Below the pieces are notes generated by a model. That model was not told the origin of the DNA. It made no database searches and saw only the letters and a program-made list of their open reading frames with translations. Both the position numbers and the translations under genes were made by a program. From IMG/VR virus record IMGVR_UViG_3300013117_000371: 64,000 nt of DNA, one strand, 5' to 3'. The stretch's first letter is position 1. Every line of letters begins with the position of its first letter. Shown here one piece after another: positions 10,985 to 57,659 of the stretch. The stretch is from a virus.

Positions 10985-11016
10985 TGCTATAAGGACCATG
11001 GACCAACATACGGAGG
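10985..11016 (+). promoter_or_regulatory. TGCTATAAG promoter-like motif, TGGACCAACA leader and RBS
   Basis: TATAAG 10988-10993, TGGACCAACA 10999-11008, GGAGG 11012-11016, ATG 11022. Confidence 0.6.
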
Positions 11017-11021
11017 GAAGA

Positions 11022-11357
11022 ATGACAAAGACACCGAGGGTAATCCTGGGGGACTCAACCCCGAAACCATGCAAATACCACCTCTCATTCGAAGGGGGGG
11101 TATTCTGTTGTACCTTCGCCCCGAGACATAAGGGGGAAGCCCCACAAGCGCTGGCGTCCTGGAACCGTAAGGGGGGAGGGTCCTACACACTACGACCCTA
11201 CGGGGTAAGTATCACCCAGACAGCCCCTGGCGCCGTCCTGGACTGGGAAAAAGTACCGGGGGTGTCGCTCTGGCTCACCGAAGCAACGCCCAAGATCGGG
11301 GGGGCCTGCAAAACGGGCTTCCCGCAAAAAAGAAAGGGGGAGACAAGTGAAGAATAA
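11022..11357 (+). CDS. Hypothetical protein, paralog A
   Basis: Shares YHL..FAPRH.G..LRPYGV..DWEKVPG.SLW with the next gene; RBS favours the start at 11022. Confidence 0.7.
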   Translation: MTKTPRVILGDSTPKPCKYHLSFEGGVFCCTFAPRHKGEAPQALASWNRKGGGSYTLRPYGVSITQTAPGAVLDWEKVPGVSLWLTEATPKIGGACKTGFPQKRKGETSEE

Positions 11358-11676
11358 CTTCCAAGAGTGGCCCCGGGAAAATGGGAGCCCAAAAGGCGTT
11401 GGCTACCACCTGGAGGATGCCGGGTGGACCTTCTATGCCTCCTTCGCCCCCAGACATGAGGGGTCGGCCAAGGAGACAGAGGGGAACCTCAATGGAACTG
11501 AAGGGAGGACCTTCGAGTTGCGTCCCTACGGGGTCAACTTCACCGGCCCAAGTGACGAATTCGGCGCCATTGCGGAAACGGACTGGGAGAAAGTCCCCGG
11601 TTTTTCGCTGTGGTTCACCCGGGACTTGGCAGTAGCCAAAGGTATAGCGACCTTGGCAGGGAAGGGCGATGCCTGA
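11347..11676 (+). CDS. Hypothetical protein, paralog B
   Basis: Same motifs as the preceding gene. Confidence 0.7.
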   Translation: MKNNFQEWPRENGSPKGVGYHLEDAGWTFYASFAPRHEGSAKETEGNLNGTEGRTFELRPYGVNFTGPSDEFGAIAETDWEKVPGFSLWFTRDLAVAKGIATLAGKGDA

Positions 11677-13047: not shown

Positions 13048-13803
13048 CTAACTGAGAGCCGCTCCGCCCACCAGGCCGGCGCCGGCGCCGACAGCGGCAG
13101 GAACGAAGTACGGGTGCTGTGTTACTTTACGAGCTCTGCCCATGAACCCGGCCAGCATCCCCCGCTGCATGGGGGAGTAAACCGGGCCTCGAGTATAAGA
13201 GCGCACCGGCGCACCGGCGCCGGCCCGAGTAGTGGTCACCGCTGTCGGCGCTCCTGGGAGCGCTGCGGTGGGCCTGGTGGCGGCTAAGTGCTGCTGGTAA
13301 GCGGGAGCCCGGCCCCGGTACAGCCCCACCTGCCGGCCGGTAGCGAAACCTTCGCTCTGGCGGAAAGCCGTCCGCTGCTGCTTTGCCGCTCGTTGAGTCA
13401 GCTGCCCAGTACGGGCGCTGGCCACCGGCCTGAGCCGCTGCGCCCCGGCGGCTGCCGCCGCCTGCTCCACCCGGACGGCCTTCTGGGTACCTACGGCACG
13501 GGCCGTGGTGCCCTTGATGCGCCGAGCGCCGGCGCCTCCGGCCTTACCGGTCCCCTTGAGGGCAGCAACGCCGGATTTGTTGAACTTGGCCATGCCCCCC
13601 TTGCCGATCTTACTGATCATCTGAGCTTCCAGGGCAGCGAGGCGCTTGGCCTCCATGCCCGCCAAGGTGCCGGCCTGGCCCAAGGAGCGAAGCTTCAGGA
13701 TGGCCCGGCCGAGGGATTGGAGGCCCCCCGCTTCCTTCTCCAGGCCCTCCCCCATTGCCGCCAACATTCCCTGCCGAAATTCCTGCAACAGGCTGCTGCT
13801 CAT
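13048..13803 (-). CDS. Basic Ala/Gly/Arg-rich putative virion-internal protein with an EKxA leader
   Basis: EFRQGMLAAMGEGLEKEAG N-terminus; C-terminal glycine-zipper AVGAGAGLVGGAALS. Confidence 0.55.
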   Translation of the reverse strand: MSSSLLQEFRQGMLAAMGEGLEKEAGGLQSLGRAILKLRSLGQAGTLAGMEAKRLAALEAQMISKIGKGGMAKFNKSGVAALKGTGKAGGAGARRIKGTTARAVGTQKAVRVEQAAAAAGAQRLRPVASARTGQLTQRAAKQQRTAFRQSEGFATGRQVGLYRGRAPAYQQHLAATRPTAALPGAPTAVTTTRAGAGAPVRSYTRGPVYSPMQRGMLAGFMGRARKVTQHPYFVPAAVGAGAGLVGGAALS

Positions 13804-14138
13804 CGCGCCTCCCCAGTCAGCATCTTCTTACCTTTCACCCCCAACCAAGCGAGGGCTGCTCCTGCTGCCGCCCCGCCGCCGAGCATTCGCCTGTGGCCTA
13901 CGGCCTTCAAGGTCTTGGGGTTCTTGAGGAGGTCCCCCAGCCTTCTGGTCCAACGGGACTGCCTGCGGTACCGGCGGTTCATAAGTAAGGCCTTGCCCGC
14001 CCCGTAGACGGCGCCGGCGGCGCCGCCTCGGGCCATCCACTTGGCCTCGTCGCTGACGCCTCTTTTTTCCAGGGCCTTCTCCCGCAGGTACCCCCGAAGG
14101 GTGTCGGTATTTACCGTCTTCATGTCGTCAGTATACAC
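13800..14138 (-). CDS. Small basic glycine-zipper protein
   Basis: ALEKRG near the N-terminus; GGAAGAVYGAG and GGGAAAGAALA motifs. Confidence 0.55.
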   Translation of the reverse strand: MYTDDMKTVNTDTLRGYLREKALEKRGVSDEAKWMARGGAAGAVYGAGKALLMNRRYRRQSRWTRRLGDLLKNPKTLKAVGHRRMLGGGAAAGAALAWLGVKGKKMLTGEAR

Positions 14139-14198
14139 TATGAAACGGGGTTGTCCAGTACTTCAAAACAAGGCAGGGCGGGTGTTCAGCCTCAGCGG

Positions 14199-14813
14199 CT
14201 ACCCAGCGCTTACCGCCACCTCTATACGCCCCGGCAACTTCTCCCACCAGGACACCCACCCTTTCTTTCCTTTCCATAACTTACTTGCAACGCAAATACG
14301 CCTCTCCCCCCGCATCCCTATGTCAGATGAGCAGTAGACGCCGGGGATGTCTGCAAGCTGCTGCACAATGCCGCTGTGATTTCTTTGCCCGCCGGGAAGA
14401 CGGAACACTACTGCCGCCGGCCGCAAGGCGTTCTTCCCGGCCTCCGTAGACCTGATCTCCACGGGGAGGGCGTTGATGCTCTCCAGCCACTCGTCCTTAA
14501 GGTCCTTGTCCACGGAGAGACCCCGCCACAGCTTCTTAGGGGCGTTCGTACGCCCACGCAGAAGCCCGGGAGGGTCCTTTTTATAGACAGTCCTATAAGC
14601 AAGAGTGGGAGAGTTTACCTTTCCTTCCAAGAGCATCCGCAAGCCCAATCCCCGGCCTATCCGGCCGATCAAGCCACGGGGGCGCCTCTCCCGGTCCCCC
14701 CGCCAGTACCCTTTCACCTGCGATTGTTCTCGCTGATGAGGGCGGACGTAACCGGCAGTTTTCTCAAAGGCGGCAAAAAAACCTCGTTGGAATGGGCCAA
14801 ACTGGTTTCTCAT
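14199..14813 (-). CDS. Hypothetical protein with an EKxA leader
   Basis: RBS GGAGG then MRNQFGPFQRGFFAAFEKTAG. Confidence 0.6.
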   Translation of the reverse strand: MRNQFGPFQRGFFAAFEKTAGYVRPHQREQSQVKGYWRGDRERRPRGLIGRIGRGLGLRMLLEGKVNSPTLAYRTVYKKDPPGLLRGRTNAPKKLWRGLSVDKDLKDEWLESINALPVEIRSTEAGKNALRPAAVVFRLPGGQRNHSGIVQQLADIPGVYCSSDIGMRGERRICVASKLWKGKKGWVSWWEKLPGRIEVAVSAG

Positions 14814-14901
14814 GGCTTCCTCCACCTGGAAGCAGGATACCACTACTGCGGAAAATGTCCAGCAGCGGGCAACGCACTAAGAGACAGCCACCCACCGAGC
14901 A

Positions 14902-15669
14902 CTAGACTCCCCGTTGTCTCGCTGAAGGTCGATGCGTCTGCCAAGCAGAGATTCGCTTCTCCACCCTCCTGTCTCTCACTCGGGCTCCTGAGCATCCTAC
15001 AATCGCTGCTACTTTGGCATCCGACATGGTTCCCAACAGATGATCATATTTGGCCCAATCAAAGCGAGAAAAGTGCCACTTGCGGTAGGGGGCAATCCCA
15101 AGACGGCTCCGCCGGGCCGTTACGGTTCGGGTCGCGCAGCCTACCTTTTGCGCTACTCTGGCATCCGACGTTGTGCCCAGGAGGCAGTCGTAGGTGGCCC
15201 AGTCATAGCGCTCGGGGCGCGTACAAGGGGGTATGCCCTTCTGCTTGCGGTGGCTGTAAACCGTCGACGCAGAACAACCTAGAATTTGGGCAATTACTGT
15301 GTCAACCTCTTTGCCCAGGAGGTGCTGCACTCTATACCACTCATACTGAGGCTTTCGCCCAATTTCCCGCATTGAAAGCGGCGCCATCGGGATGCCGAGT
15401 AGCGCACGTTCTTGCCTGATTCGTTCTCGACTGCACCCGAATCTCTTCGCAAGCTGGTTGTCCGGAACCTTCCCCAGGAGAGGCGTGATCTTTGCCCAGT
15501 CGAGTTTGGGTTTTCCCCCTCTGTAGGGTGCCCGCCCTCCAGTGTAACTGGGGGATATTCCCCGCTTCTGCCGCTGGTATGTTACTACGCTTTGAGGTAC
15601 TCCAAGGCGCTCAGCGATGAATCGATCAGTGTACTCGCCGAGCGGGATCTGGTCCCAAGTTACGTTCAA
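14902..15669 (-). CDS. Tandem five-repeat helix-turn-helix protein
   Basis: Five ~45-50-aa repeats with consensus DW..Y..LLG..SD..IA..LGCS...V...R...GI. Confidence 0.75.
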   Translation of the reverse strand: MNVTWDQIPLGEYTDRFIAERLGVPQSVVTYQRQKRGISPSYTGGRAPYRGGKPKLDWAKITPLLGKVPDNQLAKRFGCSRERIRQERALLGIPMAPLSMREIGRKPQYEWYRVQHLLGKEVDTVIAQILGCSASTVYSHRKQKGIPPCTRPERYDWATYDCLLGTTSDARVAQKVGCATRTVTARRSRLGIAPYRKWHFSRFDWAKYDHLLGTMSDAKVAAIVGCSGARVRDRRVEKRISAWQTHRPSARQRGV

Positions 15670-18600: not shown

Positions 18601-21600
18601 ACCTGGCGACACCCACTTCCTGTGCCCACTCTTTTCTAAATTGTCTTTCCTGCATTCAGTTTTCCTCATTAATCTTGATTAGTGCACTGCAGCCTTCCTC
18701 GCGGTCCTCCATTAGCAAGAACAAGTTTTTGTCGATCCCCCAGCCCGTACCGGGTAGCCTCCTTTCCAACGTCGCCTTGACCCAATTCAAGAGCTTCTCC
18801 TTATTGGCCAGGTTGGCCCCGAACAACGCTAAGTTCCATTGCAAGACCCACGCCTCCTTAAAACACAGGAGGTCACCCATCCAGTTGATGGTGGTGAGAA
18901 TGCGGAATTCCTCCTGCCACCGCAGCAGAAATTCAGCAACCTTGAACACGTTTGTGCCCCGCATCATCCGCTCCGAACCAACAATGGGGGTTCCTCCCTG
19001 CGGGCAGCTAGCCAAGGCATACCGAATCTCCAAATCCACTATGTCCGAGTTCTTGAGGGGGTTACTCCGCAAACGGTAGAACCAACGTGTCTGCCCGATC
19101 TGTGTCTCCATTGCTCAGTCCTCCTCTCCTAGAATCTCCCGTTTGTGGTTCATCACCACCCGAGCGACATACTCCACCATGTATGGCTCACGAGGCGGCG
19201 CCGGCGGCGAATACGCTGAACGGTCGGGATAGTGGGGGTACATCTCAAGCAACGCCCGCCCGTCCGGCGGCCCCAGCAAGGAAGGCCTCTCCGACTGGGA
19301 GATGATGAATGCAGCATTGAGCATCCCTATCTTCATCCTCCCCGAGAAGTCTTGCAACAAGCGGTCTATCAGTTCGCTCTCCTTGGCCGCCAAAGCCTCC
19401 TCCTTCCGCTTCTTCTTCCACGCCTCCGGCGGCCACAAGGCAGGGTCGGGGGAGGGCTCGGCGAACCGCTGCATCACAGCGTCATACGGTTCGTCCGCCG
19501 GCAGGACAGTCTCCAACACGCCGTCCCGAATGACTACCCAAAACTCTTCCCTGTCCTGGCCAGTTCCGCTGTAGATGCCGTCCAGGAGATACCCCCTCCC
19601 TGCTCCCTCGAACACCCGTACGGGGAGTTTCTCCCCCTCCTTGAAGCTCTCACAGCAGTCCCCCCTGCCGGTATTGAACTGGACCTTCGCCCCTTCCTCA
19701 GTGATTACCGTAGTGAACATCCCCATTCGCTAGTCCTCCTCTTCCGGCGGGGCAGCTTCCAATGGCTGCACCTCGTTGTCAGTCTCCTCCCAACCCGCCC
19801 AAGGCACCAATATACACATATCCCCGCTGGGAGAATCCACCACGGCGCTGTTGGCCATGTGCTGTTGAAGGGAGAAACGGGACACCAGCATCTGGTAGTC
19901 GTCTGTGCAGCTGCGGACAGCCCCTTCCTTCAGCAACGTACAGTGCCGGCAGGAGAAACGCCACAGCCCCTTGCAGTACTCCAACTGGTACTCCCGGTTC
20001 TCGTGGGTATCTACGACGTGGTAGCTCCCCTCTCCCGACACTCTCATCTTCTGCACAATCTCCAACAGGGTCACGCTATTCCTCCTCGATGAAGTAACTG
20101 TCCCTATGTTCCACTTCCCGCCAGTTCTGGGTAGCGTCCTCCGAACCCATATCCACCGGTACCAGGTTGTCTTTTTCGCTACTTTCCCCTACTCCCGTGC
20201 GGCCGTAGAGGAGGGTGTCGACCTCACCGACGATACGCATATGCTCCCCATTGAGGTGGCGGTAGGTCTTGCCCACCTCAAACTTGAAACCGCCGGCCTT
20301 GTGCTCGTCCTTGTGCTCGTCTTTGATGACAACCACGGTAGTTGGGCCCAACGCCAACGGGGAGCTCTCCCCCCTCTCATCAAGCGTCCAGGGGTGCTCC
20401 TGCACCTCGTCCGCCAACTTCTGGGGGATGCGGCCCTCTTCGGCCCTGAGCTTGCGCTCCTCCCCCTTGTGAACGACAAACGAGCCGGCTGCGTTGCGTA
20501 AGAGCACAAGCCCCGACTGCAACAGGTAAATGACCCGGTCTACCGTCCACTCCTCGAGCTCGTCCACACAGACGTGGTCATAGGACTCCCCCCGTATCTG
20601 CCCAAGCTCCCAGCTCACGAGGTCCTTCCGCAACGCCTCCAGGCGAGCCTTGCGGGCAACGGGCGGGGCGGAACGCAACCACTCCTTGACAATGCCCATG
20701 ATACCGGAACGGGTGTGCAAGGCGGCACACAACTGCGCCAGTAAGGGGGAACCCTTGCAGCCCGCCCCCCGGCCGAGCTTGTGGAGTTCGTCCCAGGGGC
20801 GCTTCTCTGCTCCCTGAGAGACGCCCTCCCTAGCGGCCACAAAGAAGCGCTCCAGTTCCTCGTACACCGACTTGGGCACAGTGTACCTAATTTCTCCCGT
20901 GCACGGGTTCTCCGTCTTCCCTACCCCTGGCCAGGGAGGTATCCCCATAGCCTTGTACAGGCTCTCCCGGACTAGGTCGCCGGGGATGGCTAAATTGACC
21001 CCCTCGGTTCGGCCACAATGAGAGGCGGGAGCCTCCTCCACCGTCATCACCACGTTCCCGTCCTTGTCCCTGTGATCCCCCAACGCCAGTCCCCTGTGCC
21101 CCACCACCCGGGCGTCCTTGAAGACGGCCCGATTGCCGTCCTCGGTGTCGATGTGGAGGTCCGCCCCATGCCAAGTCATCTCCCTCACCTTGCCGAAGAA
21201 AGTGCCCTCCGTTGGAATTGGAACCTCCGGAGCGGGTATTCTCAACCCTTCCTCCGACCCCTCCTCAATCCCCCCAGGGGCCAGAGGAACTAGGTAGGTT
21301 CGCAACGCCTTGCCATAGTGGGTGAACCCCTCCCTCGCCTTCTCGAGGTCTTCTACTACCTGCGCCTCGAAGTCGTTGAGTTCGTCCGAGTGCTTGTGCC
21401 ACCACGACCCACCCTGGACGAACATCCCCCAGGTGGTGACGATGAGCCCAAGCCCATCCGCCGATAGGCCCAACGGGTAATGGACGTCCTTACCGGGGTT
21501 ATTCTGATCCAGCACTCTACGGGCGACCGCCGCCCGGACTTCTTGTTCTGCTGTCAACTGCATCTTTTCCTCCTTTATGCTGCCTCAATTTCCCAAGTAG

Positions 21601-22323
21601 GCTCTGCTCCGCCGAGGGCCGGTGCCCGCCCCTTCGCTCCTCACCGGGACACCTAAAGTCACCCCCCCGCCAAGAAGACGTGCCCCTTGTGGTGCAACAA
21701 ATACCTCAAACATGCACAAAACCGGCACATCGGGCAGCTGCCCTCGCAGCCGCAAAGCTCGTCGTTGCTCATGTTATCTCCACGTAGTCGTCCGTCACAG
21801 TCACACAAACGTCGATAGTTGCCAAGTCGTCGGGGTCGAACCGCTCATTGCGCACGTCTATTGTAAAAATAGCAAGGCCGTTTCCCCCTCCCTGCTCCGC
21901 GATTCTCGCATCCACGTACGCCTTGAACTCCCCCCAGGTCAGGGAGCGGTAGTTAGAGTAGTCCTTCTCCGACGGCCGAATGGGGTAGTTCCCGGCCACG
22001 CTGACCCCCCTCAGGTAGCCGATGCACCCGTCGTTTTTGCACTGCCACGAGGAAGCGTCGAACGGGAACATGAGATGGTTGCAGTACTTGCAAGGGGGGA
22101 TGGGGGGATCTGTCTTCCGCTGCCTCCCCGAGGCCCTCCTCACACAGTCGGGACAGACATCAGTCGTAGCGTTGAAAAGCCATCCCGCAAGCAGCGCCTG
22201 ATTGCGCAAAGTCCCGGGGAGGCCGCAGGGCTCCTCGGCGCAGTAAACGGAGTTGCATCCTATGATGTCGCACAGCACCATCTCGAACCGCTCTCCTCCC
22301 CGTTCTCTTTGAACAGCCATTGG

Positions 22324-22446
22324 TTACCCCCTCCCTATCCCAATGAACGGGTCCAGGACGTACTTCCCCCCCGGGCAGTGCTCATTGAGCAACCGAGCAA
22401 GAACGTCAATGATGGGGGGTGGGAACGCCGCCGGGTGGGACGCCAT
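22324..22446 (-). pseudogene. Truncated remnant of an N4/N6 DNA methyltransferase
   Basis: GGAGG, then MASHPAAFPPPII...VLDPFIGIGRG*: HPAxFP and DPFxGxG motifs, with a stop right after motif I. Confidence 0.55.
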
Positions 22447-25400
22447 CAGCTCGCCTCCGCCGCCGGGGGCAGGGTAACCGTCACCACCACCCCATGCTCC
22501 GCTTCGTACGCCGTGCTGCGTCCCCTCGTCCTCGTCCGGGCGCTCAGTGTGCAGGTAGAAATTCACCCTGCCCGGAAGATTGGGGTGCCAATCAGAGGTT
22601 ATCTTCACTCCCCCCAAGCGGCAAGCAAGAGAGAGGAACTCCTCCTTGGTCATTCTCCCCCTCTTAGACCGAGTTCGGTCGGTCCTTCCTTTTTCTGTGG
22701 CCACGTTTGGGCATCACTTCTCCGTATATTCTCAATCCGGGAGCCCACCGGCAGCTCCGCATCCTTTCCTGCACACTCCTCCATCTCCCCGTCCTTGTCG
22801 AAGACTATGTCGAGCCGGAAATACAGTGCTGGTACCACCAACTCGGCGAAGTGCTGAAGGGCCTGACCGCACCGGGGGCAGTTGCATAGCAAAGTAAGAG
22901 CCACCTCCTCATGCGCACAGGCGGGGCACATACCCCGCATGGTCCCACCCACATGGTTAATAGTGAAACGGATAGTATGCTCTCCCCCAACCTCCCCTTC
23001 TAGCCAAATCATGGACCCTCCGGTATCGCAATGTCATCCGGTATTGCCTCAGTTGCATTTGTTGCCTCTGTGGGCTCAAGGGCCTCTGTGGCCACCATTG
23101 CCTCTGCGGCGCCCCCTTCCTCAGCCTCATACAAGGCCGCCATCTCCCGAGCAGGGCCTTCGAATTCCAACCGCACCTCCTCCCCGCCCAGCTCCTCCCA
23201 CTCCGCAATTACCGCTTGCAACGGGGCCACCAAGTCTGGGTCCAGGACCGTAATGTGTCCGAACGGGTTAATGACCGCCGACATCTCCTTCCGAGGAATG
23301 CGCATCATCTGGCTACTCCCCAGAGACATCTGGTAAAGGCGGTTTTTCACCCTCGCCCCGAACGTCCACTTCCTCCGGGCGTAGAGGACTGGGCAGTCCA
23401 TATCGCCGGCGTTGCAGTAATACCCGTGCAGCATCACCCAACCAGGGTAGCTCGGGAGGAAGTTGTCCTTGAGGAACTGCACCAAGTGGTCCGAACAGTC
23501 TAGGGTTGCCTGCTGTGCTTTCATCCCTTCGTCTCCTCGGTGCTGTCCCGCGAGAAGGGGGAGGGGGTCCCCATTGTGTCGCCGTTATCCATCTCCCTAC
23601 GCAACGGGCAGTCGTTTGGGGGGGAATAATGGTACACCCATCTCTTGGTCAGCAGTATCTTCCTTCTTGGGACTTGCGGATGGCGGCATTCGCACACCTT
23701 CGAGGGAGGACCAGCCCGATCAATGTGGGCACACTCGCTACAGTGACGGGGGATTCTCATGACCACTCCTCGGTGAGGTGGTACACCGTCGTCACCTCGG
23801 TTCGCTTCTCCTGCCGCACTACCCCTTTCCGGACCAAGGCGTTGACAGTGCGCCAGCCCACCCGGATGCCACTGATACGCTCCTCTTTGGCTGCGTACAG
23901 GTAGGCCCCAAAGAAGTCCGTTATGAATTCCCCACCATTGCGGAGGATTTCCACCACCTTCCGCTGAACCCGGGTGAGCTTGGCGTAGCTGATATCTATT
24001 CCGGCAGCTTCCAACTCTTTCAGACACCTCTCGCATCCCGGGAAGGTCCTGTTCGGAACCTCCCTGGCTCGGGACTTGGTGTAGTCGGTGACGATAATCA
24101 CCTTCCTGCACGCAGTCGTATAGTCCTTCCGTATAGTGAACAAGTCCTGCTCCGTAACCACGAATGACACGACGTGGCACCACCTTCGGCCCGGGGCCTT
24201 TTGCACCTGAACCCCCCTCATCGTTTCTCTCCTAAGGCTTCAAACACCTCCTTCCGAGCTTGGCGTGCGCACTTAGCCACCCCCACTGGACTGAGGGAAT
24301 ATGTCATAGTAATGAGGGTAATCGTGCTCTCCGCTATCTCTGCCTCCGTCCGCCAGTAGCACACGTCACAGAGGGCCTCATGCTTCCCCTTCTCCCGCCC
24401 GTGGGCGTGTAGATTGATTGCCGCACTGTGGCACCTGGTGCAATTATTCATTTTCCCTCCCCAGTCGTATCTTCAGCCCGAACCCCAAACAGCAAAGGTA
24501 GAGGTTCTTCTTCTCCGCGTCGTAGTAGGCCCCCACCCACAGGTCGTACCAGCGGTAAAAAGGGGTGACTCGAGGGGCCTTCTCCGGCGCTTCTGCGCCC
24601 AGGTAGTAGGGCTTGCCCACCCGGGGGATGTACTGCTTGGTGTAGGTCACCCCATTGTAGCCGAAGTCACAGGTCGACCCATCCGGCCGGGGGATCTGCA
24701 CCCGAAACCGGCCATGGCGCCTCAGGGCATCGCTAAGCTTATCGCACACCCAGTCCACGTCGGCGTTGGCCTCAATGCTCACGTACCCTTCCCACCTAGA
24801 CTGGACGCCGGAGCGGCGCTCATCGGACGGGCCACAGGTGAGATCCACTACGCAGTTCCTCAAGTCGTACTGCACCCGCTCGAACAGGCCGTCCTCCACC
24901 TCGTAGACGTCAAGGAGGTAAAAGAAAATCTTCCGGCGAATAGGTCCCCCCTCCCCCGCCTTGATCTCGTGCTGGTTACGTACACCCCCTGCACAGGGCT
25001 CAGGGATCAACAAGTCCGTCTTCTCCGTCTTCTCCCACACCTTCATCTCCCCCACCTTGGATACGGGAGACGCAGCAAACTTGACGACAACTTGGGGGCG
25101 GTCTGTCGCCACTACCCCCTCGACACCTACCCCCAACATGCGAGTCCAGATGTCCAACCACTCCAGCCATTGCGGGATCTGGTCATCGCCCTCCAACTCA
25201 AGTTGCCCAAACCAGCTATTGCTGGAGTTGACACAAGCCTCCCGTATTGGCCAAGGAGAACCCTCCACATACTTCAGAACTTCGAGTTCCCGCCCAACCG
25301 GGACAAACCCAAGGAGAGTAAAGGTGAACGGGCGCGAGTGGCAGCAGCTCACGATTTCCCCCTCGGCCACACTTTGAGCCTCCCCCGGTGCAACAACGGC

Positions 25401-27201
25401 GCCTTCAGGTCGTCCCCGCCCCACACTGTTACCTCCCCATGCCCAAGGTACAGGAGGAACGCCAAGAGCGCCCCCATTTTCGCACACCACCGCCACCTGA
25501 AGGGGCCAACGGCGTAAGCGGTCCGCCACCTGATGGGGGAAGGCTCTACAACTACCAGGTAGTACCTGGCCTTCTGCCCCTGTTTGTTCGTCTGCCAACT
25601 CATCGTCTGTACCTCCTCCCTTTCTGCCGGTCCATTATCTTCTCATGGCAAGGCGGGCAGCGGTTGCTCTCCCACCCCTCCGGCGGCTTGAACAGCTCTC
25701 CGCAACTCTTGCACCGGGGGAGGGGCTCCACAATGACGTTCAAGTACTCCTGCCTGAACATGTCGGGACCGCAACGCATGGACTCAAATAGTTCCTGCGT
25801 TGTAACGCCCTCCATGGGCTCTGGTGACGGCCCCTCAAACGTGGGCCATATCGTTTGGTCTTGCTTCAACCAGTCCCGCCCCCAAGCCTGCTCAACAGTG
25901 CACACCAGGATCAATTCTCCTTTACGTACGTACGCCTGGGAGACCTCCCCCACTACCTGGTCGCCCCGGCGGATCTCGCTGCCCCGCAGCCGCGCCGCCA
26001 GTTCCTGGTAGTCCACCTCGAACCGGTCACTGGGAAAAGTGGCGGTGAAGTGCCCCCACTGGGAGGCCTGGGTGAGGTGCTCCCTCACTTTCTCCTCCGC
26101 TTTCAACAACGCCCCCTCCTTGCGGAGCTCCTCGTAGTCGTGCCTTGTCATCATCGCCCGGGTTGCGCCGGTGTCCCTGTCAACCAGGTGGACCACCCCG
26201 CTCTCATCCTCGTGGGCCTCCAGGTCCCCCGTCAACTGGAGCTGCTCACCCTCCCGAGACGAGAAGGCGCTACGCAGAACTTCCATATCGAGGGGGTCGT
26301 CTTTGCTGGGCTTCTTCATGCCTCTCTCCCCCACTTCTCCAGGTAGGTGCGCCCCAACAGCTTGAAGCGGCGGTACATCTTCGCCTGCTCCTCGTCCCCC
26401 TCCGCCGTAGCATCGACCAGCTCCCGCAAGAATACCAGCCCCTCACGGAGCTTGTCCATCACGTTGCGGGCCCGTTTCTCAGTACCAGCACACTCCTGCT
26501 CCAAGGACGCCTCCGGCCGGGGGATGGCGCCGAGAATGGCCTGCACTCGGTAGAAGGCACTCCCCACCTCTACGTCTGCGCCCCACTTGCCCGGCTTGCA
26601 AGGGAGGGAGAAGACCTGGCCGGTGGCCCTGCTTATCTCCAACAGCTCCCGGGAGATGTCGTCGACGTTGAGCTTGAGGTTGGCCAACCGCACCCGGGAC
26701 TTATCTCGGCACTCCATCTCCACCTGCTGGAACACTAGACAACGCCCCCTTGGCTCAATGGAGGCGAACTCGGCCACCCCCGCCTCCGTCACGTAAAGCT
26801 CCAATGGAGGGACAACCAGTCTCTCCGGCTTCGTCGGGAACGTATCCTTCAACCTTCCGCCTCCACGTAGCAGTGCCGGGGGCACTCCCCTGCCCAGATG
26901 GGGGAGTGCCTTCGTAGTTCACTTCGCCCCCATATGCTGCCTCCAAAACTCCGGGTGGAAGTCGCAGACATCATCGGCACTTACCAGGTCGTACCAAATA
27001 GGCATCGACTTCCTACCGGGCAATCTGAGCAGACACCGCAACTTCTGCGGGTCCCCCGTACCTCGGTCAACCGAGGATGGGCAGCTAGCGCACGTGGGTG
27101 GGGTTTTTTTCTTTTCTTTCGACATAGGTGCCTCCTTGTCTTTATCCTTCTCCAAGCAGGAAAGGGCCTCAACAGCCCATTCCGGCCGCCCTGCACTCCG
27201 A

Positions 27202-35099: not shown

Positions 35100-35657
35100 T
35101 CAAGCTTTGCCTCCATTTTTTCGCATTCTCTTGTACGCCCGGTACGCCCCGTACCCCAAGCCTCCCTCCAACGCGAACCGCCCTGGACGGGACACCGGGC
35201 CGAGGGCGTTGACGAGGACGCCCTTCCCGCTGCCTGTAGCTACCCCCACCCCGGCGCCGTAAAGGTGGGCCAGGACCTCCGACGTGCCCACAACGGGAAG
35301 AAGATGGAAACGCTCGTGCTCACGCAAACTGGCGGCTACTTTCTTGCCTTTAAGGCCTCGATGCAAATAGATACCCCTCCCCTTCCCACGACGTACTACA
35401 GTACCAAGCACACCCCGAGAAAACTTATCGGTGACGGCCCGCAACTGCCGCTTACTCCGCCAGAGCCGCACACGGCCAGCAAGCCCGTCCGACTTGTGTC
35501 TCTTGAGCAGCAGGCGAGCTATACGCCCCTGCAACACCTGCCGCTGCACCGCCTTGCTCAACCCTTTTCGCCCCACGTAACGCACCTTGGGGTTGGCTGC
35601 ATGCTTAATTCCGGCAAGCATCCCCTGAAAGACGGCCTCTTTGGCTAAGTCTCCCAA
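35100..35657 (-). CDS. Basic protein with a KxA leader and an HExxH metallopeptidase-like motif
   Basis: FQGMLAGIKHAA leader; GIYLHRGL..SLREHERFH..SEVLAH; C-terminal glycine-rich segment. Confidence 0.55.
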   Translation of the reverse strand: MGDLAKEAVFQGMLAGIKHAANPKVRYVGRKGLSKAVQRQVLQGRIARLLLKRHKSDGLAGRVRLWRSKRQLRAVTDKFSRGVLGTVVRRGKGRGIYLHRGLKGKKVAASLREHERFHLLPVVGTSEVLAHLYGAGVGVATGSGKGVLVNALGPVSRPGRFALEGGLGYGAYRAYKRMRKNGGKA

Positions 35658-35661
35658 TCAC

Positions 35662-36180
35662 CTACCTACGCACTAAAGCAAACCCTGACCGGCTCCGTTC
35701 CGCTTCCTTTCGAGCCTTCTCCGCCAACGCCGTATCCGCTTTGCCGAAAACCTTCCCCCCCGCCCGCAACGCAGACACCCCCGGGATGCCCCCAAGGAAG
35801 TTGGAAAGGATCGGGTGCCGGGGGGTGAAGGACCCGGGCTTGCCCCTGATTTTCTCCTTCCACCCCTTCCCGTGCTTCGCTGCGGCGGCCTGACGCAACC
35901 TCACCGTGGCGCCGATGCCGCTCAGAAGGGAGAGCACCCCCGCTGCCGCAAGGGCCTTGTACGGCGCCCCCCCTTTCAGTTTCTTGAGGGCCCTCACGTA
36001 GCCCTTACGGGTCAAGTGCTTCTTCCGCTTGAGCCGCTGTACCATACGCAGCTGCCCAACTCCGGCGGGGAGTCCCAGGAGAGCGCCTACGCCCAACGCC
36101 TTCGTCGTAGCATCGCTCTCCCCCACTTTCTCAAGGTCTTCCTGCGCTGCCAGGAAACCTCGCATGAATTCATTACTCAT
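35662..36180 (-). CDS. Basic glycine-zipper protein with an EKxG leader
   Basis: AGGAGG RBS; MSNEFMRGFLAAQEDLEKVG; hydrophobic Gly/Ala helices. Confidence 0.6.
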   Translation of the reverse strand: MSNEFMRGFLAAQEDLEKVGESDATTKALGVGALLGLPAGVGQLRMVQRLKRKKHLTRKGYVRALKKLKGGAPYKALAAAGVLSLLSGIGATVRLRQAAAAKHGKGWKEKIRGKPGSFTPRHPILSNFLGGIPGVSALRAGGKVFGKADTALAEKARKEAERSRSGFALVRR

Positions 36181-36257
36181 TATTCCTCCTGTAACTTCTC
36201 CACTTTCTCCGCACAAGGAGAATACACCGCCGGCGGGGGGTAGTCAACTTCGGGGGG

Positions 36258-41629: not shown

Positions 41630-42332
41630 TGAGTTTGCGTATCACATCCATTGGGCCCAGTTGCTCATTGGCCGCAGTGAAGATGTGCATCCACCGCTTC
41701 GCCGCCGCCGAGCCGGCGATCGCATCCCGGGTGACCACCGCCTCCCGGTACTTGGCCGCCGCCGCTGCCCGCATGAACTTCAACTCCTCCTCCTTGTCGA
41801 TGTCCACTACCGCTCCGGAGTAGAGCAGGGCCACCTGATGCCCCATGCTGTAAAGGACTCGGTAAGTAGTCCCCGCCCGATGTAGCTCAAACAGCATGTC
41901 CAGTTCCCATCTGGAGAGGGACTTCAAGTCCCAAACCAGGTGGGAGTACATCCGGATAACCGACTCGGGGATGACCTTGCGGTGCAGCTCCATGACAGCG
42001 TTGCTGACCAACTGGTGATTGCCGTCTGCGGCGAGCAGGGACTCCACCGCAAACCGGAGCTCCCCCGAGTCCACAACGGCGCGGACCGTGCCGCACATGG
42101 CATCGTCGTGCCATACCCTGGACAAGAGGTTGTTGGCCACGAAATTGCTGACCGTTCGATCGTTGGTCAGGGGCTGTTGCACCCTTACATACAGGTCCTT
42201 AACATACCTCTCCAAGGCCTCTGACGGGTCGGTCTCCACGTACCCCAACTGCGCCAGGACGCGTAGGACATACTTCTGCGTCATCCCCTTCAGGAATAGG
42301 AGCAGAAGGTACCGTTCGCAGGGCAACTTCAT
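41472..42332 (-). CDS. Hypothetical helical protein
   Basis: ATGA overlap with the 656-aa gene; 286 aa. Confidence 0.65.
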   Translation of the reverse strand: MKLPCERYLLLLFLKGMTQKYVLRVLAQLGYVETDPSEALERYVKDLYVRVQQPLTNDRTVSNFVANNLLSRVWHDDAMCGTVRAVVDSGELRFAVESLLAADGNHQLVSNAVMELHRKVIPESVIRMYSHLVWDLKSLSRWELDMLFELHRAGTTYRVLYSMGHQVALLYSGAVVDIDKEEELKFMRAAAAAKYREAVVTRDAIAGSAAAKRWMHIFTAANEQLGPMDVIRKLIARVQLVKPTRERIEAVPYTELESISGLTRGIAMLADITEAQRAKEDAESSP

Positions 42333-44299
42333 GCTTGGCCGGCCCCCATACTATCCAGCTGGGTCAACTGGTCGGCTACCTTCTGCACGTTCTTGGTCGC
42401 CAAGAACGCGGTATCGGGGTCGACCGGCTCTAGCCCGATCTGCGCCGCCAAGGTGAGCTTGGCTAAGCTGTCAGCCAAAGCATACAAGGCAGGCAGCTGC
42501 TTGACAAACATGTCCAAAGTCTCACTCCCCATCAACTGGAGGGCCATCAGCTCGTCCTGCTGCTGGGGAAGCGCCGCCGCCAACTTGAGGAAACCCAAGT
42601 CCACGTCGTACTCAGTGTTCACCGTAGCCAAAGTCCTGGTCACCAGGAGGTCCTGCGGCCCCCTCCTGGAAGCCGCCACCTTCTGTAAAGCAGTGGGCTC
42701 GCCCACCCCCAGGGCCCCCAGGATGAACACAGCGTCGGGCAGGGATACAGCCTGCTTCTCCAGCGGCTCCCCTTCCCACTCGGCGTGCTCCACAGGCATT
42801 CCGGAAAGCGAGTAACCCAAGTGGTTCCTGGTCACGGTCACCCGCCTGGTGGGGAAGGAGCGGGACGCTACCTTCTCCAGGCTCATGTCGAAGTAGGACG
42901 CATCCTCCGTTACAAAGAATACCTGGGCGTCCTTGGGCAGGTACAATCGCCCGCTAAGCAGCAGCGGCTTCACCACCGTGGAGGAAATAACCACATCGGC
43001 CGCTTGCTCCGGGTGGTCCATGATCGAGTGCGTGGAAAAGTGGCGGCCCAGGTAAACCCGTCCCTTCTTGATCACGCCCAGCGGGCGGTAGATGGTGTTC
43101 TTTCCGGCAACCACCACCATCTTCTTGCCGGGGTGCCGCCACATGTCCTCCACCGAAGTCATCTTGATCGCCGGAGCCCGCCCTTTTACGTACTTGGTGG
43201 TGGGGTGCTCAGTCAACCTGTAAATCACCCCCTTGCTGGAGGTCGCCACGAGCCGTTCGGGGTCGTCGTCGCCCCACCCGATTTGCTTGAGCACCCGCAT
43301 GTTGAACTTGTTGCCGTTCTGGGAAGCTTTGATGCCCATCCCAGGCCTCAACTCACCTCGTTCGTACAGCGTCACAGTCCTTGCGGCCTGCTTCTCCAAC
43401 TCGAACACGCCGGGGTCCCTGACGATGGTGGCGAAGGGCTTACGGGAGAAGGCGTCCATCACCGCAGCCGGCACTTTACCTACCGGCAACTCCCGCACGG
43501 CGGGGCGGAAATCGCCGGCGTACGCTGTTTTCTCCATCACCCCAAACGGCACCCGCTCAAACTGCACTACCTCCTCCGGCACGGCGAGCAAGTCGCTCAC
43601 TTTGCGGCCGAAAGGGGTACCACTGAGGTAATCCAACAAGGACGCTTGCTTGGGGAGCTCCCCCAACACGGCCCGGCGGGAGTTGTTGGCCGAGTTGTCG
43701 ATGTTGCCGCCGTCCGGGCCCTTGGCGATGTTCTCCTGGTCCGGGGCGGTCTGCTGAGTCGGCATCAATTTCTTATTGGAGGAGGCGCCGATCACCGGCG
43801 CCGGCGCCCCAACCAGGTGGGAAAAGCCCATCTCCGTAGTAGGTATGGCGTAGTACTCACCGTCTATGGCGACCGCCACAGGGGGCTCCAGGGTGCCGTC
43901 GTTCACCACGAAGGGCACCGCCACGTTGCGCTGCTGGGGAGTAGCAATCATCACGCTGCCGACAATGATGTTCCCCTCGTCCTTGTCAATGCGGGGCTCC
44001 ATAGGCAACTGCGAGAGGTAGTCGAACTCGTTGACCACGGCCTCCAACGCTGCGGCCATGACAGCGTTGTGGTCCCGCATGTTCAGCGTCATCCGGCGGT
44101 TGGGGAAGGCGCCGACCTTGGGGCCTACCCATGGTTGCTGCCCCTGCTGGTGTTGGGGAACACCCGCCTGGCCCGGGGGTACCAGGCCAGCGTCCATAGG
44201 CGGCGAGGCGGGGGCCGCCAGGTCCGCCGAAGGCTGCGGTTGCTGCACGTCGGCCCTCTTCTCCATCCCCGGGTTCAGTTCCTCGAATACATGCTCCAT
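42329..44299 (-). CDS. Putative prohead core/inner-head protein with eight K-x-A sites
   Basis: MEKRAD, LPKQAS, MEKTAY, LEKQAA, LEKVAS, LEKQAV, LQKVAA, FLKLAA; sits next to the baseplate and RNAP genes. Confidence 0.55.
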   Translation of the reverse strand: MEHVFEELNPGMEKRADVQQPQPSADLAAPASPPMDAGLVPPGQAGVPQHQQGQQPWVGPKVGAFPNRRMTLNMRDHNAVMAAALEAVVNEFDYLSQLPMEPRIDKDEGNIIVGSVMIATPQQRNVAVPFVVNDGTLEPPVAVAIDGEYYAIPTTEMGFSHLVGAPAPVIGASSNKKLMPTQQTAPDQENIAKGPDGGNIDNSANNSRRAVLGELPKQASLLDYLSGTPFGRKVSDLLAVPEEVVQFERVPFGVMEKTAYAGDFRPAVRELPVGKVPAAVMDAFSRKPFATIVRDPGVFELEKQAARTVTLYERGELRPGMGIKASQNGNKFNMRVLKQIGWGDDDPERLVATSSKGVIYRLTEHPTTKYVKGRAPAIKMTSVEDMWRHPGKKMVVVAGKNTIYRPLGVIKKGRVYLGRHFSTHSIMDHPEQAADVVISSTVVKPLLLSGRLYLPKDAQVFFVTEDASYFDMSLEKVASRSFPTRRVTVTRNHLGYSLSGMPVEHAEWEGEPLEKQAVSLPDAVFILGALGVGEPTALQKVAASRRGPQDLLVTRTLATVNTEYDVDLGFLKLAAALPQQQDELMALQLMGSETLDMFVKQLPALYALADSLAKLTLAAQIGLEPVDPDTAFLATKNVQKVADQLTQLDSMGAGQA

Positions 44300-56427: not shown

Positions 56428-57378
56428 CTACTCCTCCATGATAGTTGTGAGCACCCTACGGTGCTCACGGCTCAGGATTCCTATGTTCCCCGTGGCTACG
56501 GCGTTGCGCACGGTGGCGCCCATCACCGCCGCCACTTTCTCCAAGGTGTCTTCAGGGACCTCCTCTTTGGGCGGCACCTCCCGGTGACCGAACGTGGTCA
56601 AGAAAGCGTCCGGGTGCCCCTTCAAGCACACCTCCTGGTCCAACTGGTCCAACATACTGGCGTGCTTCTCCAAGTCCTGCTCTCCCAGGATGGTGTCAAA
56701 AAGGCTCAGCGCATCCGGCCGATGGGCCTCTAAGAACGCACGGCGCCGATCGAGCAGGAACTGGCGACTGGTGTTCTCATCTACGGCAGCGTACTTGCTC
56801 AATGGGTCGGGGGCCTCTACTCCGTGCATCAGCAGCTGCAAAGCCACCGACCGCCTCTCGCAGGGGCGCAAAGCGCCTATCTGGCCGGCCAAGCTAGCGG
56901 CTAGCTTCTCCAGTTGGTCTCTTGAGTCAAAGCCGACGTTGGCCCCCCGCACCACGATGAAGTTTTTCGGCTGAGGCCGAGCCTTTGGCTCTCGTACCTC
57001 GTCAAACTCCGCTGAGGCAGTCTTGGAAAGGTCGGCCCCGCCCTTCACTTTGAGCCCGAACTTCCTCAACGCCGTCAAGAGTCGAGCGCTGACCTCATCC
57101 CTGACTTCTTCGGGGAGCTTCTTGCCCGTGTGTAGGAAATAGAACATGGAAACCAAGGCGTTGGCCTGGTCCGAAATCGGGTAGTACCTTCCCACAACCT
57201 TGCCTTTCTGTTTCCGCACCAGGGCGAACTCCTGGTCGGGGAACTTCTTATGGTCCGCCTTGTCTACCCGCACCCCCTTAGAGATCCCACGAGCGGCGAC
57301 CTTGGCAAGTTCCCTTCCCTCACCCACAGTCTGGGCCAAGAACTCACCGCCGTCATCGTAATAATCCAACTGTATCAT
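56428..57378 (-). CDS. Putative head-morphogenesis protein with six K-x-A sites (start 57378)
   Basis: GGAGG then MIQLDYY; LAKVAA, LSKTAS, LEKLAA, LSKYAA, LEKHAS, LEKVAA. Confidence 0.6.
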   Translation of the reverse strand: MIQLDYYDDGGEFLAQTVGEGRELAKVAARGISKGVRVDKADHKKFPDQEFALVRKQKGKVVGRYYPISDQANALVSMFYFLHTGKKLPEEVRDEVSARLLTALRKFGLKVKGGADLSKTASAEFDEVREPKARPQPKNFIVVRGANVGFDSRDQLEKLAASLAGQIGALRPCERRSVALQLLMHGVEAPDPLSKYAAVDENTSRQFLLDRRRAFLEAHRPDALSLFDTILGEQDLEKHASMLDQLDQEVCLKGHPDAFLTTFGHREVPPKEEVPEDTLEKVAAVMGATVRNAVATGNIGILSREHRRVLTTIMEE

Positions 57379-57421
57379 GTAGCGCCTCCGCCGAGCGGGG
57401 TTGCCTTTCTCACCCCCCATA

Positions 57422-57659
57422 ATACCCGGTTAAATCAAGCCGTCAAGAAATCGCAATCGGGGGGTGTGCCCGCAGTACTTCCATGTTAGTTACGACTCCG
57501 CCAGCAGCGGACACCCCCCGCCTTCAGGCCACCGAGGAGACGCCCAACTTGCTTGACATCTACAGTTTACATTGGTAGTGTGTGGACAGGAATCCCCCAC
57601 CGTGAGGTGGGGGAGGAGGCCAAGATACCTGGTTAAATCAGGCCGTCAAGAAATCGCAA
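57422..57659 (-). promoter_or_regulatory. 35-bp direct repeat (two copies), each a leftward TTGACG-16-TATYWT promoter
   Basis: 57422-57456 and 57625-57659, 2 mismatches; -10 hexamers TATTAT and TATCTT. Confidence 0.7.
57553..57581 (+). promoter_or_regulatory. Sigma70-like rightward promoter
   Basis: TTGACA (57553-57558), 17 nt, TAGTGT (57576-57581). Confidence 0.7.

Follow-up and report, generated by a model that had tools for sequence, protein, structure and literature searches.

In phage T4, the internal proteins IPI–III and Alt carry a capsid-targeting sequence (CTS) of about 10 residues, which the prohead protease gp21 cleaves off at (L/I)-x-E. In the herpesviruses, the maturation and release sites of assemblin are cut between Ala and Ser, and we know of no addressing function for these sites. 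Propeptides of T4 direct proteins to the prohead core (PMC10052503; PMC9024508), and the cleavage code is (L/I)-x-E in T4, as against A-x-E in SPN3US (PMC10052503). In the phiKZ-like phages, the proteases of which are gp245 in SPN3US and gp175 in phiKZ, head and ejection proteins are cut after A-x-E. SPN3US has short N-terminal propeptides of 20–24 residues on gp45 and gp225, and its protease trims itself (PMC10052503). In phage P1, the first 30 residues of DarB suffice to load a reporter into the capsid (PMC9024508). Here we describe a short N-terminal leader on proteins encoded by a 64,000-nucleotide stretch (the window) of IMG/VR virus record IMGVR_UViG_3300013117_000371. The window is part of an uncultured phage of about 184 kb, and its gene products sit on a 183,892-bp contig.

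Six minus-strand genes of the window (P1–P6; Table 1), located at 13.0–14.8 kb and 35.1–36.4 kb, start with F-x-x-G-[FM]-[LF]-A-A followed by [LF]-E-K-x-[AG], with the Lys at residues 12–23 and the small residue two positions further. The motif stretch at the N-terminus reads ...QEFRQGMLAAMGEGLEKEAG in P1, ...TLRGYLREKALEKRG in P2, ...PFQRGFFAAFEKTAG in P3, ...EFMRGFLAAQEDLEKVG in P5 and ...LFMVELEKLAG in P6, and P2 and P4 are weaker, looser and shifted matches. With slightly more confidence than doubt, we read this leader as a two-part propeptide, an address helix joined to a head-protease site, which would resemble the T4 CTS, use a Lys-x-small code and be read by a protease of the gp21 fold. 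Like the T4 CTS, it is a short N-terminal peptide on otherwise unrelated small basic proteins and ends in a putative head-protein processing motif; unlike the T4 CTS, the motif is [LMF]-E-K-x-[A/G/S] instead of x-x-Glu, and the leader is longer (14–25 residues). The likeness extends to the phiKZ-like phages, in which a short repeated motif is the processing site of many head and ejected proteins (PMC10052503), although the motif of SPN3US differs, most of its propeptides are long (111–254 residues) and no common short address has been described there. An N-terminal address that loads a host-directed protein into the capsid is also a feature of phage P1, but that signal has been shown on DarB only and without a described link to a cleavage motif (PMC9024508). 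In the literature searched, no paper was found that describes this motif or a Lys-x-small head-protease code, in keeping with the earlier note on this DNA, whose author knew of no characterisation of the motif.

The earlier note had claimed that three adjacent genes share an N-terminal leader, and this was borne out by the open reading frames (ORFs) at 13048–14813, by residue shuffles and by a six-frame scan. Among the 68 called proteins, F..G[FM][LF]A[AG] matched three times, always at an N-terminus, compared to 0.0 times in 300 residue shuffles, and [LFMI][EDQA]K.[AG] matched 11 times within the first 45 residues, compared to 1.5 ± 1.2 times in the shuffles. The composite pattern gave four matches in the six-frame scan of all 64 kb, three of which were the N-termini of P1, P3 and P5. 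The claimed reappearance of the leader 21 kb away was likewise confirmed, in P4, P5 and P6 at 35.1–36.4 kb, P4 being the weaker case. As for the K-x-A/G motif itself, it is present, but it is really K-x-A/G/S and stands in an [LMF]-E-K context, not bare. The leaders of P1–P6 differ in their codons, so conservation and selection act at the peptide level, and a DNA-repeat origin was rejected on the same ground. A Sec or lipoprotein signal peptide was also rejected, because the leaders have E, K, R and Q throughout and no hydrophobic core, as was a double-glycine leader of bacteriocins or of ribosomally synthesized and post-translationally modified peptides, because GG follows the motif only in P1 and the proteins are 63–251 amino acids (aa) long. 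The short N-terminal peptide is thus common to otherwise unrelated proteins, the six described above and a 656-aa protein of the window. An N-terminus of this kind is also present on the 330-aa portal-proximal protein (GEGRELAKVAA), which has two internal sites besides and is probably a multi-cut head protein.

Searching with a portal profile retrieved 80 IMG/VR loci, mostly from contigs of 170–195 kb, with portals 24–30% identical to that of the window. In these relatives the leader has the form [AG]-F-x-[DE]-E-[LM]-E-K-x-[AGS] and is found on the portal-adjacent protein, a sigma factor and further proteins. The gene directly upstream of the portal (300–390 aa) starts in many loci with M-x(5-12)-[AG]-F-x-[DE]-E-[LM]-[EQ]-K-x-[AGS] and continues in a Gly-rich run, and further non-homologous genes in the retrieved loci also bear the relatives' leader. 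One locus (L058) has FQRGFLDELEKVA, in a register identical to that of FQRGFFAAFEKTA in P3, and in a low-GC relative of 186 kb (L003) the basic, Gly-rich protein beside the portal carries AAFVDELQKIA. A Phe was present 3–8 residues upstream of 28 of the 59 N-terminal sites and of 63 of the 306 internal sites (Fisher p = 5e-5), totals that count homologous proteins several times; the rate at internal sites was close to the 18% background. This enrichment suggests a role for the leader beyond that of a cut site, and the presence of the upstream Phe at N-terminal but mostly not at internal sites fits an address helix placed before a general cut site.

Sites of the Lys-x-small kind were also found in head proteins. 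In a complete relative of 190,298 bp (G001), the capsid protein, which matches PHROG 2522 (E 1.4e-12), begins ...GKEKIAEYGGSYIRDRLRE and includes GKEKIAEYGG, and K-x-K-x-A-E is invariant in five capsid proteins of metagenomic relatives. The cultured Salmonella phage Arash has, in gp226, LVKEAG at the same distance from a conserved RQKLRE as the capsid K-x-A in the relatives. A 571-aa head-module protein of G001, which has 1162 homologues, is predicted to be a gp21-fold prohead protease. The best solved match to the model of its N-terminal 340 residues was T4 gp21 (5jbl_B; Z 8.7, root-mean-square deviation 2.7 Å, 131 residues), with herpesvirus proteases next (Z 6–7). The earlier note had suggested looking for a prohead protease gene, and a gp21-fold candidate was thus found in relatives only, not in the window. 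In five complete relatives there was no match to PF03420 (Peptidase_S77) or PF04586 (Peptidase_S78) at E <= 1, implying that the resemblance to gp21 is at the level of the fold only, and a phmmer search of the G001 candidate against PDB sequences gave no match. The relatives' protease is therefore like that of T4 in its modelled fold and unlike T4 gp21 in failing to match the Peptidase_S77 model. Compared with herpesvirus assemblin, the model from the relative is of the same fold class and a small residue stands at the probable cleavage position P1, but Lys would be at P3, not P2, and the host range is entirely different.

The folded part of the putative protease (residues ~33–295) is flanked by an invariant F28-E-K30-x-A32 (FEK[VT]A) and by AEKLG/EKTAS, and K-x-small sites flanking the domain in this way are what would be expected of a self-trimming head protease. 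The Arash homologue, gp222, has LTKQA at residue 28, and the Arash head-module proteins gp218–gp225 are dense in [ML]-[ETD]-K-x-A. Arash virions were found to contain two small proteins of the module, gp221 and the basic, Gly-rich gp224; nothing was drawn from the 'coverage' column of the Arash supplement, which looks unreliable (e.g. 100% from 2 peptides). Some protease homologues (P0054, P0055, P0068, P0073 and P0119) reach about 950 aa and contain intein and LAGLIDADG endonuclease domains (PF14528, PF14890, PF07591), so that inteins lie inside the head-maturation protease gene of some relatives. The sigma factor of G001 (Sigma70_r3, E 8.7e-11) begins ...EEFLDHKQKVAS. About 4 kb from it, among leader-bearing genes, G001 encodes a 568-aa polyvalent-type protein with DUF5661, Peptidase_C92 and InPase domains (21383-23089; L132:1383-3089).

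In the two-part propeptide that we favour, the first part would be a short amphipathic helix (F-x-x-G-[FM]-[LF]-A-A in the window, [AG]-F-x-[DE]-E in the relatives) that serves as an address and may dock the newly made protein to the assembling prohead core, the scaffold or the protease. The second part, [LMF]-E-K-x-[A/G/S] at the end of the helix, would be recognised by the phage's own head-maturation protease, predicted to have the T4 gp21/herpesvirus assemblin fold. Once the prohead is assembled, this protease would cut off the leader of 14–25 residues, possibly after the small residue, and the mature, strongly basic proteins would remain in the head with the DNA and exit with it at infection. 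The cargo may comprise DNA-associated internal proteins, membrane-active ejection proteins, a role to which the Gly-rich hydrophobic patches would be suited, and, in the case of P3, an effector domain. The head import and processing proposed in the earlier note are supported in part: the comparative evidence (the clade-wide leader, the capsid and protease sites and the upstream Phe) would fit a propeptide read by a head protease, and it comes from relatives.

The earlier note had also described the remainder of each protein as unrelated, which holds for homology but not for protein character. The family profiles of P1 and P5 do not align (hhalign probability 0.3%), whereas all six leader proteins have isoelectric points (pI) of 10.7–11.9 and are Gly/Ala-rich, several with glycine-zipper-like hydrophobic patches; the C-terminus of P1 is hydrophobic and Gly-rich. 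No Pfam or PHROG match was found for P1–P5, and P3, P5 and the 656-aa protein gave no relatives in single-protein IMG/VR searches. In tblastn searches against cultured phages, P3 had no match and P5 gave just weak matches to Gordonia tail proteins, and an Atlas search with P5 returned viral hypothetical clusters only. Close homologues of P3 keep the leader and start M..FEQGF.DALEKTAGYVRPH, and P1 homologues retain F..G....G[LM]EK[ET]AGG. The closest P5 homologue starts MSTAFTEGFLDAQDGLEKGA; the core motif of the P5 family is KPGSF[TS]ARHP, and its distant members, although their N-termini differ, have [LY]-K-x-A close to the beginning.

A folded domain (~140 residues) is present in P3 alone. 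The AF2 model of P3 showed a helix at residues 7–20 that stops exactly at K18-T-A20, a disordered basic linker at residues 21–62 and a domain at residues 63–204 (pLDDT > 90). Foldseek found no match to this domain at E <= 0.001, and the best hits of a wide VIA structure search (Z 7.3) were generic alpha/beta folds, with no clear solved relative. The domain was found both alone and inside multi-domain proteins of 860–2000 aa (49 metagenome loci, e.g. L025, L026, L027 and L030), in which its partners are NADAR, DprA-like, metallo-beta-lactamase, Dam methylase, ATP-dependent DNA ligase, S-adenosylmethionine methyltransferase and XkdF-type protease domains. The C-terminal domain of P3 is thus a polyvalent-protein module, recurring in giant multi-domain proteins of phages and mobile genetic elements. 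The polyvalent-protein architecture is widely thought to be virion-delivered. In the giant proteins of L010, L025, L026, L027 and L030, the P3-domain module contains K[IV]N[AS]PT[FLM]AY... and Ser/Glu-rich linkers join the domains, while a stand-alone homologue (P0005) carries a C-terminal LEKKAG tail instead.

Several observations weigh against the two-part propeptide. P1–P3 lie among early/replication-type genes with sigma-70-like promoter-like sites and not in a head module, and the portal and the virion-type RNA polymerase of the window have no leader. The link between leader and protease rests on relatives with portals just 24–30% identical, the window's capsid and protease genes lying outside it. 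In G001, P1–P6 have no BLAST homologues and the loose five-residue motif is mildly enriched (13 N-terminal sites compared to 6.2 ± 2.4 in shuffles; 65 sites in total compared to 51 ± 7). With a 17-column matrix made from the relatives' leaders, P1, P3 and P5 could not be told from shuffled proteomes, although this matrix is underpowered (P3 scores 9.0, and the best shuffled-proteome score averages 6.1 ± 3.1). In the P1 family, conservation is as high behind the motif as in the leader, and the N-terminus of the relatives' capsid protein is conserved throughout, so that no drop in conservation marks the presumed cleavage position. RGMLAGFM, which is the helix half of the leader, is repeated at P1 residues 213–221 (nt 13141–13167, minus strand), and this copy near the C-terminus is kept in P1 homologues without K-x-A behind it. 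In addition, the Arash paper mentions no processing. Set against the two-part reading, an account in which K-x-small does no more than mark a processing site of the head protease, the helix is not an address and head entry depends on other parts of the proteins appears unlikely to us. The proteins would then be prohead core, scaffold-like or head-internal components that are trimmed in maturation. This would agree with the internal multi-site proteins that have no N-terminal helix (the 330-aa and 656-aa proteins of the window, a 510-aa protein of G001 and Arash gp220, gp223 and gp225), with the presence of the site on the capsid protein and the protease, and with the situation in SPN3US, where most head proteins are uncleaved and packaging is thus independent of cleaved propeptides (PMC10052503). 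It does not account for the enrichment of Phe upstream of N-terminal compared to internal sites, nor for a helix register that is kept in non-homologous proteins and in phages that have diverged widely.

We regard it as quite improbable that the leader escapes cleavage and serves as an amphipathic helix for binding to membranes or partners in small proteins that act on membranes or oligomerise (for example in pore formation, lysis or exclusion), with K-x-A merely part of the helix. The Gly/Ala-rich, glycine-zipper-like hydrophobic stretches of P1, P2, P5 and the portal-adjacent family are consistent with such proteins, and so are a weak pointer to Gly-zipper_YMGG clusters from a language model (score 0.75), the second RGMLAGFM in P1 and the sigma-70-like promoter-like site at each of P2, P3 and P5. 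However, the hydropathy maxima are borderline (1.1–1.6 over 19 residues), P3 has no hydrophobic segment and a soluble-looking domain, and the same ending occurs on the sigma factor, capsid protein and protease of the relatives, none of which is a membrane protein. That the leaders resemble each other through common ancestry, through module shuffling among fast-evolving small genes or by chance, with no common function, seems very improbable. The composition common to all six proteins, the shortness of the motif and a lenient BLAST alignment of P1 and P5 (28% over 131 residues) could be taken in that sense, but the comparison of P1 and P5 family profiles finds nothing, the expected number of shuffle matches for the helix part is 0.0, and the same register recurs in phages whose portals are just 24–30% identical.

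Table 1. Leader-bearing genes, their leaders and promoter-like elements in the window (nt, nucleotide positions; −, minus strand)
Feature	Position	Strand	Description
P1	13048..13803	−	251 aa, pI 11.9; begins MSSSLLQEFRQGMLAAMGEGLEKEAG
P1 leader	residues 1–25, nt 13729–13803	−	FRQGMLAAMGEGLEKEAG
P2	13800..14123	−	107 aa counted from ATG, pI 11.5; begins MKTVNTDTLRGYLREKALEKRG
P2 leader	residues 1–22, nt 14058–14123	−	LRGYLREKALEKRG
P3	14199..14813	−	204 aa counted from ATG; begins MRNQFGPFQRGFFAAFEKTAG
P3 leader	nt 14754–14813; leader helix residues 7–20	−	FQRGFFAAFEKTAG
P4	35100..35657	−	185 aa, pI 11.8; begins MGDLAKEAVFQGMLAGIKHAA
P4 shifted leader	within 35100..35657	−	LAKEAVFQGMLAGIKHAA, with K6-x-A8 and K18-x-A20
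P5	35662..36180	−	172 aa, pI 11.3; begins MSNEFMRGFLAAQEDLEKVG
P5 leader	residues 1–20, nt 36121–36180	−	FMRGFLAAQEDLEKVG
P6	36258..36449	−	63 aa, pI 10.8; short leader, begins MEDKLFMVELEKLAG
656-aa protein	42329..44299	−	same kind of leader, VFEELNPGMEKRAD (K13); outside the coordinates of the P1–P6 finding
330-aa portal-proximal protein	56428..57420	−	GEGRELAKVAA at 40, QLEKLAAS at 172, TLEKVAAV at 295
Promoter-like element	14130..14157	−	TGGACA-N16-TATACT, just upstream of P2
Promoter-like element	14834..14861	−	TGGACA-N16-TATCCT, just upstream of P3
Promoter-like element	36219..36247	−	TTGACT-N17-TATTCT, upstream of P5
Promoter-like element, fourth copy	26429–26458	−	motif match

The promoter-like pattern T[GT]GAC[AT]-N14-17-[GT]TAT.CT occurs in four copies in the window, compared to 0.14 expected in shuffles, and three of the copies are directly upstream of P2, P3 and P5. 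The ATG of P2 lies 6 nt past the −10 element, suggesting that the P2 mRNA may be leaderless. The ATG starts of the leader genes were preferred over longer GTG/TTG ORFs because ribosome-binding sites (RBSs) and promoter-like elements support them: an RBS precedes the ATG of P3 at 14813, the ATG of P5 at 36180 is backed by an RBS and a promoter-like site, and an upstream GTG start of P2 was excluded because the promoter-like site ends at 14130. The start of P1 is overlapped by the stop of P2. Immediately upstream of P3 lies a gene for a 255-aa protein with about five tandem helix-turn-helix repeats (14902–15669, minus strand; HTH_23, HTH_17 and sigma-70 region 4-like). Upstream of the gene for the 330-aa protein there is a near-identical element, TTGACGGC[TC]TGATTTAACC[GA]GGTAT, in two minus-strand copies about 200 nt apart (57419–57446 and 57622–57649). 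Two adjacent plus-strand ORFs at 10998–11357 and 11347–11676 resemble tandem paralogues, both with FAPRH[KE]G...LRPYGV...DWEKVPG[VF]SLW; only the second of them passed the crude gene call. The window also encodes an SNF2 helicase, a DNA methylase, the portal and a 2012-aa RNA polymerase, its remaining genes being mostly unknown. By portal, the closest cultured relatives are the Vibrio phages D69, D148 and D181 and Salmonella phage Arash (~21% identity).

More tentatively, and short of an even chance in our estimate, a very abundant, unstudied clade of phages of about 170–200 kb may use a gp21/assemblin-fold protease with Lys-x-small specificity, together with a separable helical address marked by Phe, to load and mature fast-changing injected proteins, among them basic internal proteins, a sigma factor and polyvalent-type effector domains. 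Public data hold more than 1000 homologues of the clade protease. If this is true, the leader could be used to read off the injected proteome of uncultured phages from their sequences: as a capsid address joined to a cut site, it would provide a rule that lists the proteins co-injected with the DNA in a large and common uncultured phage group. Among the injected proteins listed in this way there would be a sigma factor as well as domains known otherwise from polyvalent proteins. Lys-x-Ala/Gly/Ser would join the known head-protease codes, which are x-x-Glu in T4 and the phiKZ-like phages, and the leader would be a portable packaging tag, testable in the cultured relative Salmonella phage Arash.

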